A DNA stretch of 64,000 nucleotides. It comes from Escherichia coli (GTDB taxonomy: Bacteria > Pseudomonadota > Gammaproteobacteria > Enterobacterales > Enterobacteriaceae). Below are positions 61,844 through 62,761 of this stretch, one piece after another. The stretch lies in NCBI RefSeq assembly GCF_009931435.1, contig NZ_CP043414.1, one strand, 5' to 3'. A program made the position numbers and the translations under genes. The stretch's first letter is position 1, and each line of letters starts with the position of its first letter. Under the pieces are notes generated by a model. That model made no database searches and had not been told where the DNA came from. It worked only from the letters and a program-made list of their open reading frames with translations.

Positions 61844-62047
61844 ACTCCTGAATACAGTAGTATTTTACAGACAAAAATACCGTATATGGATTATTCGTTT
61901 ATAATCAGGATAATCTAATAAAAGGACCCCTGAAAAAGTGGTTAACATGGAACAAATGAAAGTTACTCCTTCTGTAATTGTTATGTCTTATGGCCTCATC
62001 CCTTTTAGCCGGATACTGAAAAACATCCTTCGAGAGGGACGGTTACC

Positions 62048-62761
62048 ATGAAGATTTTTTTGGAGAATCTTTATCATTCTGATTGCTATTTCCTGCCGAT
62101 AAGAGATAACCAGCAAGACCTTGTCGGCGTTGAGTTAATTACCCATTTCTCCAGTGAAGATGGTACGGTTCGTATACCGACGAGTCGGGTTATAGCGCAA
62201 CTTACCGAGGAGCAACATTGGCAATTATTTTCTGAGCAGTTGGAATTGCTAAAATCATGCCAACACTTTTTTATTCAACATAAACTCTTTGCCTGGCTTA
62301 ATTTAACCCCACAAGTGGCTACTTTATTATTAGACAGGGATAATTACGCGGGCGAACTATTAAAATATCCGTTTATTGAACTGTTGATTAATGAGAATTA
62401 CCCGCATCTCGATGAAGGAAAAGATAATCGCGATCTTTTGTCCTTATCGCAAATGTATCCCCTTGTGTTAGGTAATTTGGGCGCAGGCAATAGCACAATG
62501 AAAGCGGTTTTTGATGGTCTTTTCACCCGCGTCATGCTGGATAAAAGTTTTATTCAGCAACAAATCACGCATCGCTCCTTCGAACCGTTTATTCGTGCGA
62601 TCCAGGCGCAAATTTCCCCATGTTGCAATTGCATCATCGCGGGGGGCATTGATACGCCAGAAATAATGGCACAGATTACCCCCTTTGATTTCCATGCTCT
62701 CCAGGGATGCCTGTGGCCTGCCGTTCCTGTAAATCAGATAACGACGTTGGTTCAGCGATAA
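62048..62761 (+). CDS. ydiV: EAL-like anti-FlhD4C2 factor YdiV
   Basis: 237-aa product MKIFLENLYHSDCYFLPIRDNQQDLVGVELITHFSSEDG... Confidence 0.9.
   Translation: MKIFLENLYHSDCYFLPIRDNQQDLVGVELITHFSSEDGTVRIPTSRVIAQLTEEQHWQLFSEQLELLKSCQHFFIQHKLFAWLNLTPQVATLLLDRDNYAGELLKYPFIELLINENYPHLDEGKDNRDLLSLSQMYPLVLGNLGAGNSTMKAVFDGLFTRVMLDKSFIQQQITHRSFEPFIRAIQAQISPCCNCIIAGGIDTPEIMAQITPFDFHALQGCLWPAVPVNQITTLVQR

Follow-up and report, generated by a model that had tools for sequence, protein, structure and literature searches.

The window analyzed here is a 64,000-nucleotide stretch of the Escherichia coli contig NZ_CP043414.1 (assembly GCF_009931435.1), in which the genes btuE, btuD, nlpC, ydiV (rflP) and selO follow one another in that order. 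The region matches 5,426 genomes with an identity of at least 95%, and 5,404 of these carry annotations of nlpC and ydiV at the matching position. The ydiV gene (62048..62761, plus strand, as are all features described below) encodes a 237-aa anti-FlhDC factor. As an anti-FlhD4C2 factor, YdiV/RflP restrains motility in E. coli and renders the expression of flagellar genes in Salmonella nutrient-dependent and bistable. The protein diverges more rapidly than is usual for the enterobacterial core, with E. coli YdiV sharing about 53% identity with its Salmonella counterpart, 49% with that of E. fergusonii and 76-82% with those of the cryptic Escherichia clades. Since 2011, the control of YdiV has been described as partly post-transcriptional (CsrA, poor translation in E. 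coli), with no cis-element defined. The response to nutrients was initially attributed to control at a post-transcriptional level (PMC4173784), and Koirala et al. (PMC4173784), summarizing earlier work, describe YdiV translation as regulated by CsrA, as reported in Salmonella. The E. coli gene is transcribed and poorly translated in E. coli, while it is well translated in Salmonella (PMC4173784), which suggests that a factor acts in trans. Transcripts initiated at the nlpC promoter have been reported to extend into ydiV. Just past the nlpC stop codon (61801), an inverted repeat (ATGGACGG...CCGTCCAT, 61813-61841) with a poor T-run constitutes a weak terminator-like hairpin, consistent with the reported read-through. 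In Salmonella, the rflP transcription start site lies at -230, a G at L060:1271 (Thota et al., bioRxiv 10.1101/2020.05.29.124750), and the leader ORF (uORF) that precedes ydiV is therefore on the mRNA.

In the window, this uORF spans 61956..62051, with an ATG at 61956, 31 codons (MKVTPSVIVMSYGLIPFSRILKNILREGRLP) and a TGA stop at 62049-62051 that overlaps the ydiV ATG (62048-62050) in an ATGA tetranucleotide (62048..62051, ccATGAag). The longest mechanically derived ORF in the same frame starts further upstream, at GTG 61938, and has 37 codons; ATG 61956 is its second in-frame ATG, the first being ATG 61947. The segment 61938..61955 is thus an in-frame 5' extension, and it is specific to Escherichia. 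The preliminary description of the locus had placed the start at ATG 61947, giving 34 sense codons (MEQMKVTPSVIVMSYGLIPFSRILKNILREGRLP) that end on the TGA overlapping the ydiV ATG, and both the sequence and the list of ORFs agree with that frame. They also bear out its remark that the ydiV SD lies inside the frame, since the SD-like region GAGAGGGACGG occupies 62032..62042, within the 3' end of the uORF, with a predicted hybridization energy of -7.8 kcal/mol to the anti-SD. An identical ORF is present in K-12 MG1655 at about 1792130..1792017 of NC_000913.3 (minus strand), where RefSeq annotates no feature between rflP and nlpC. Within E. coli the leader is nearly invariant, and the sole length polymorphism seen is in an A-run upstream of the ORF. 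Two E. coli ydiV variants (P0002 and P0009) are natural 1-nt frameshift alleles that fuse the uORF frame to ydiV; the P0002 fusion, with 14 member sequences, is 274 aa long (MVNMEQMKV...NHPSRGTVTMKIF...). Strains with alleles of this type already provide naturally occurring mutants in which the stop/start geometry is altered. Another stop/start overlap is found upstream in the window, where the btuE ORF (59959-60510) and the btuD ORF (60510-61259) have one base in common at 60510.

Profiling of initiation sites has yielded several regulatory uORFs and leader peptides in E. coli, including pssL (upstream of pssA), mgtL, toiL and idlP. The ydiV uORF resembles these elements in its size, its location in a 5' leader and its detection with both retapamulin and Onc112, as well as in the poor conservation of its peptide relative to that of its position. 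Table S4 of 'The Cryptic Bacterial Microproteome' (PMC11188072), which also contains pssL, lists it in MG1655 as ORF.98704 (NC_000913.3 1792019-1792130(-), VVNMEQMKV...), with a TIS value of 14, an RPF value of 303 and 100% coverage in the retapamulin data, and with a TIS value of 15, an RPF value of 67 and 81% coverage in the Onc112 data. The TIS values of hisL in the same table, 21 and 13, are similar. Ribosome profiling, which had been named as a check on the uORF, hence provides published initiation and footprint reads on it, but the initiation reads number just 14-15 and do not distinguish between GTG 61938, ATG 61947 and ATG 61956. The uORF was classed as 'Intergenic', that is, not predicted to be coding, and it falls outside the conserved Entero67K set; it is listed there without comment, and ydiV is not mentioned (PMC11188072). 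A literature search found no paper naming both ydiV and a uORF, and none joining ydiV, CsrA and CLIP-seq. Unlike the profiling-derived uORFs cited above, the ydiV uORF has never been named, annotated or tied to its downstream gene, and its sole appearance is a pair of rows in a supplementary table (PMC11188072).

A frame of this kind can arise by chance, and the preliminary description had allowed that it may be fortuitous. An A directly after an ATG is common. In mononucleotide shuffles of the 87 interior nucleotides, moreover, the frame stays stop-free in about 19% of trials, and the single sequence is hence compatible with chance; the SD of the uORF is also weak in this strain. The question was therefore addressed by comparing 58 orthologous ydiV loci, with one genome per species (57 other species) and the Salmonella enterica locus added. 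Clustering these loci by single linkage at 60% put most genera together and was uninformative, and a count of stops per codon column was used instead. Stops are absent from the uORF frame over the 29 codons preceding ydiV in 52 of the 58 loci, as opposed to 9 and 4 loci for the other two frames, while the median pairwise identity of the 92 nt is only about 43%. For the 50 loci that are in register and free of indels, none of the 29 codon columns contains a stop in the uORF frame, compared with 19 and 14 columns in the other two frames (33 stop-bearing columns together), which accumulate 142 and 62 stops in total. These data across genera remove the option of a fortuitous frame, and conservation in relatives, which had been proposed as a check, is in this sense well documented; a functionless chance ORF is accordingly an extremely unlikely explanation.

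The ends of the uORF are preserved along with its openness. A start codon is located at -92 from ydiV, or at -91 in four variants that have lost one nucleotide, in 54 of the 58 loci (ATG in 44, TTG in 7 and GTG in 3). In 49 loci the uORF stop and the ydiV start have bases in common, as ATGA in 43 and as TAATG or TGATG in six, the latter form being that of Salmonella and some Citrobacter. Frame, length, start and stop-on-start arrangement are kept in Escherichia, Citrobacter, Salmonella, Enterobacter, Kosakonia, Trabulsiella, Buttiauxella and others. In the Buttiauxella/Dryocola group the length differs by an in-frame 6 nt. In C. sedlakii the A at +4 of ydiV has been lost (codon 2 is GAC, and therefore no ATGA can form), yet a TGA one codon earlier generates a TGATG. 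In both cases, changes that would otherwise disrupt the arrangement are compensated. Taken across the loci, the comparison shows that the openness, start, length and stop geometry of the uORF are under selection, and that it is almost certainly a real, previously unannotated regulatory leader ORF.

The same comparison bears on which start codon is used. The conserved start is ATG 61956 (MKVTPS..., 31 codons), at -92 from ydiV. ATG 61947, favored in the preliminary description, and GTG 61938 are confined to part of Escherichia; the position of the former reads AAG in E. coli E69 and in E. albertii, and in most other genera there is no in-frame start upstream of -92. The bases of ATG 61947 instead form part of an AUGGAA motif that supplies a GGA (61949..61951) 7 nt before ATG 61956, and this proximal GGA is the SD-like motif of the uORF. 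A GGA is present between -12 and -5 of the uORF start in 50 of 54 loci, compared with 16% in shuffles. In this strain the predicted hybridization of the uORF SD to the anti-SD is weak (-3.3 kcal/mol), in line with the earlier assessment. A second, distal GGA (61924..61926, -32 from ATG 61956) makes up a CsrA-type pair with the first. A distal GGA (-38 to -20) is found in 43 of the 54 loci, 39 of which also have the proximal one, versus an expectation of 4% for the pair; Salmonella lacks the proximal one. Other conserved features are the AA that follows the ATG at the start of the uORF and the G-rich block that is the ydiV SD, which hardly varies between genera. Some 40 nt before the uORF start, the block TTTATAATCAGGATAATCT (TTTATAAT-CAGGATAATCT, 61898..61916) is conserved in nearly all genera, and it is retained in L026 and L044, where the uORF segment is gone. 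This block looks like a -10 element (TATAAT at 61900-05 or GATAAT at 61909-14) or an operator, and a strict sigma-70 scan called no promoter in the leader, the block included. Citrobacter, Kosakonia, Buttiauxella and others, as well as one Escherichia locus (L002), also harbor an in-frame ATG at -35 of the ydiV ATG, within gATGCCGGAT, which is absent from the window (62013-62015 region). The stretch around it, CAGGATGCCGGAT, is among the best conserved of the uORF and holds further GGA motifs.

Not all lineages follow this arrangement. In E. albertii (L005 2410-2500), a 1-nt deletion in an A-run places the uORF stop at -16, and in L035, L041 and L047 the stop is shifted by a few codons through 1-nt indels; the uORF segment is deleted in L026 and L044, and Siccibacter has no uORF. 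That these lineages manage without the stop/start geometry counts against a coupling of the uORF to ydiV. In a further locus, L028, the start codon is lost. The exceptions to the geometry are nonetheless informative rather than contradictory. Loci without a long uORF (L026, L044, L052 and L055) have much shorter leaders after a conserved CAGGATAAT block, and L026 carries a canonical GGAG SD followed by a 13-codon mini-ORF that also ends in ATGA.

Selection on the frame need not imply selection on its product. A functional small protein of 31-34 aa would account for the open ORF, its start codon, its SD-like motif and the ribosome reads on it, and was evaluated on the peptide sequences. Entropies at codon positions 1, 2 and 3 are 1.10, 1.16 and 1.00, with no codon periodicity, and single-nucleotide codon differences are synonymous in 234 cases and nonsynonymous in 681. 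Between genera the peptides cannot be aligned, sharing only the initial MK... and the C-terminus encoded by the SD. The published dN/dS for the Escherichia cluster of the uORF is 1.48 (PMC11188072), and the 'Intergenic' classification given to it there agrees with these results. Purifying selection on the peptide was rejected on the absence of a third-position excess, the 234:681 ratio and the published dN/dS, which makes a functional small protein a highly improbable reading.

A leader peptide that senses amino acids by attenuation, as in trpL, hisL and thrL, or that arrests the ribosome, as in SecM, TnaC and SpeFL, would instead explain the nutritional control of YdiV, which responds to nutrients and amino acids (PMC4173784). 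The ydiV uORF has the size of such leader peptides and, like the attenuator leaders, is a short ORF upstream of a nutritionally regulated gene. In contrast to them, it has neither regulatory runs of codons nor a terminator/antiterminator pair, and its stop overlaps the start of the structural gene. Across relatives, no conserved codon run for a sensed amino acid and no conserved arrest motif were found in the uORF peptides, whose dN/dS of about 1.5 also argues against this explanation. The terminator scan detected no terminator-like site on the plus strand between 61956 and 62048, nor was any hairpin followed by a U-run, and Rfam covariance models gave only sub-threshold chance matches over 61000-63000. 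An attenuator was ruled out on the lack of codon runs and of a terminator, an arrest peptide on the lack of a peptide motif and a known Rfam family on the lack of a model match, and a sensing or arresting leader peptide is thus very unlikely. On balance, it appears to be the act of translating the uORF, and not its product, that matters.

RNA structure over the ydiV SD was assessed in the window, within Escherichia and across all genera. A hairpin restricted to Escherichia is predicted at 61999..62039, in which TCCCTTTT (61999-62006) pairs with GAGAGGGA (62032-62039) and an inner stem is formed by 62011-62014 and 62025-62028. The E. coli ydiV SD has a predicted pairing probability of 0.84, and the local hairpin has a z-score of -1.7. 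Pairing probabilities of the SD in Escherichia range from 0.81 to 0.95, versus about 0.65 in shuffles; in nine Escherichia sequences, pairing is kept in 96% of cells and one C-G to U-A double change is seen. For 52 distinct leaders from all genera, in contrast, mean SD pairing is 0.625 in native sequences and 0.616 when the upstream sequence is shuffled, and RNAalifold returned no consensus structure for 35 leaders (-75..+8). Sequestration of the SD as a general mechanism was hence discarded beyond Escherichia. Because pairing over all genera equals that of shuffles and no fold is shared, the predicted occlusion of the SD is an Escherichia-specific layer and not part of the conserved core. In E. 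albertii the ydiV SD is degraded to AAAAAGG, and the helix still pairs, with CCTTTTT facing AAAAAGG.

Coupling by termination and reinitiation at overlapping stop and start codons (AUGA or UAAUG) is established for neighboring genes of an operon, trpB-trpA being one example, and a downstream gene can be driven by a short leader ORF. The arrangement upstream of ydiV shares with these systems a uORF with its own start and SD-like motif, a stop that overlaps the downstream AUG, a downstream SD contained within the uORF and, in Escherichia, a predicted base-pairing of that SD. It departs from them in that the upstream ORF is a 31-codon leader without a conserved product, rather than a gene, and in that occlusion of the downstream SD is not general across genera. 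The best-supported reading of the comparison is that the preserved stop-on-start geometry would matter for reinitiation, and not for the peptide or for simple occlusion. We infer the coupling itself from this geometry, and consider it probable that the leader ORF is translated and coupled to ydiV by termination-reinitiation, with the GGA pair as a likely CsrA site. Ribosomes would initiate on the uORF at its GGA-type SD and AUG-AAA start, translate across the ydiV SD-like region and stop at the UGA inside AUGA, from where they, or their 30S subunits, would re-initiate on the ydiV AUG. In Escherichia, translation of the uORF would also melt the hairpin that pairs the ydiV SD with TCCCTTTT. The output of YdiV would then be set largely by the frequency of initiation on the uORF. 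With the hairpin, ydiV in Escherichia would rely more heavily on translation of the uORF, which fits, without proving, the poor translation of the gene there. The positive dependence of ydiV on the uORF, the melting of the hairpin and the binding of CsrA are steps that we likewise infer. The quality of the ydiV SD counts against coupling, since at -7.8 kcal/mol it could support independent initiation if unfolded.

Ribosome-binding sites repressed by CsrA typically display two GGA motifs, one of which overlaps the SD. The motifs at 61924 and 61949, about -30 and -7 from the uORF start, reproduce this pattern, and CsrA may act at these two conserved motifs of the uORF ribosome-binding site. As a plausible CsrA site, the pair would place CsrA control on the uORF. 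It differs from the known cases in that the putative motifs flank the ribosome-binding site of the uORF and not that of ydiV, and the proximal GGA is missing in Salmonella, where the effect of CsrA was reported.

Since the entire ydiV ribosome-binding site is covered by the uORF, a repressive role of the latter was also weighed. Ribosomes translating or terminating on the uORF would in that case occupy the SD and AUG of ydiV and prevent independent initiation, to which the ydiV SD is by itself decently suited. Pro-UGA is a slow-terminating context, and a ribosome paused at the Pro-UGA end (CCA UGA) in Escherichia, where all versions of the uORF end in ...LP-TGA, would keep ydiV poorly translated. 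The report that E. coli ydiV is transcribed and poorly translated (PMC4173784) is in agreement with repression, but the good translation of the same gene in Salmonella (PMC4173784) speaks against a block acting purely in cis. Hypermotile TraDIS insertions in E. coli ST131 map to ydiV, nlpC, the nlpC-ydiV intergenic region, hemK, prfA, yjeA and yjeK (PMC5425062). The last four genes relate to release-factor methylation, RF1 and EF-P modification, and their effect was attributed to flhD transcription (PMC5425062); a link between the Pro-UGA end of the uORF, the efficiency of termination and these hypermotility genes, which would favor repression, is conceivable but purely speculative. Outside Escherichia, however, a terminal Pro is found in only a few loci, and pure occlusion needs no exact stop-on-start arrangement, yet 49 of 58 loci keep the overlap and C. 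sedlakii has restored it. Repression of this kind, including the pause at Pro-UGA, therefore seems unlikely.

Another explanation is that a translated uORF would shield a long and otherwise untranslated leader from Rho or RNases, so that the uORF would control the completion or stability of the ydiV mRNA and not initiation at the ydiV AUG. Such protection is compatible with coupling. The length of the leader, the Salmonella start site at -230 and the reported read-through from the nlpC promoter are in its favor, as is an excess of C over G in the uORF body in 44 of 54 loci (on average 16.2 C versus 11.7 G in 69 nt). This bias is modest, however, and similar to that at the start of ydiV itself (15.1 versus 13.5), and the exact stop/start overlap is left unexplained. 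Protection of the mRNA as the main role of the uORF is accordingly given little credence, and termination-reinitiation coupling is retained as the preferred reading.

The locus also illustrates that regulatory uORFs are lost from screens that rely on dN/dS, since what was listed as a translated but 'unselected' intergenic smORF (PMC11188072) is strongly selected here in its openness and geometry. For YdiV itself, a conserved leader ORF ending on the start codon of the gene constitutes a concrete, mutable target that makes the control of its translation directly testable. We tentatively propose, as a possibility only, that this leader ORF is the missing cis-element of the post-transcriptional control of YdiV, such that nutrient status and CsrA would act on uORF initiation and thereby set YdiV levels and the FlhDC-YdiV-FliZ bistable motility switch. 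If this is the case, leader differences, among them the SD-occluding hairpin and the terminal Pro-UGA of Escherichia and the missing proximal GGA of Salmonella, would explain the opposite nutrient responses of E. coli and Salmonella.
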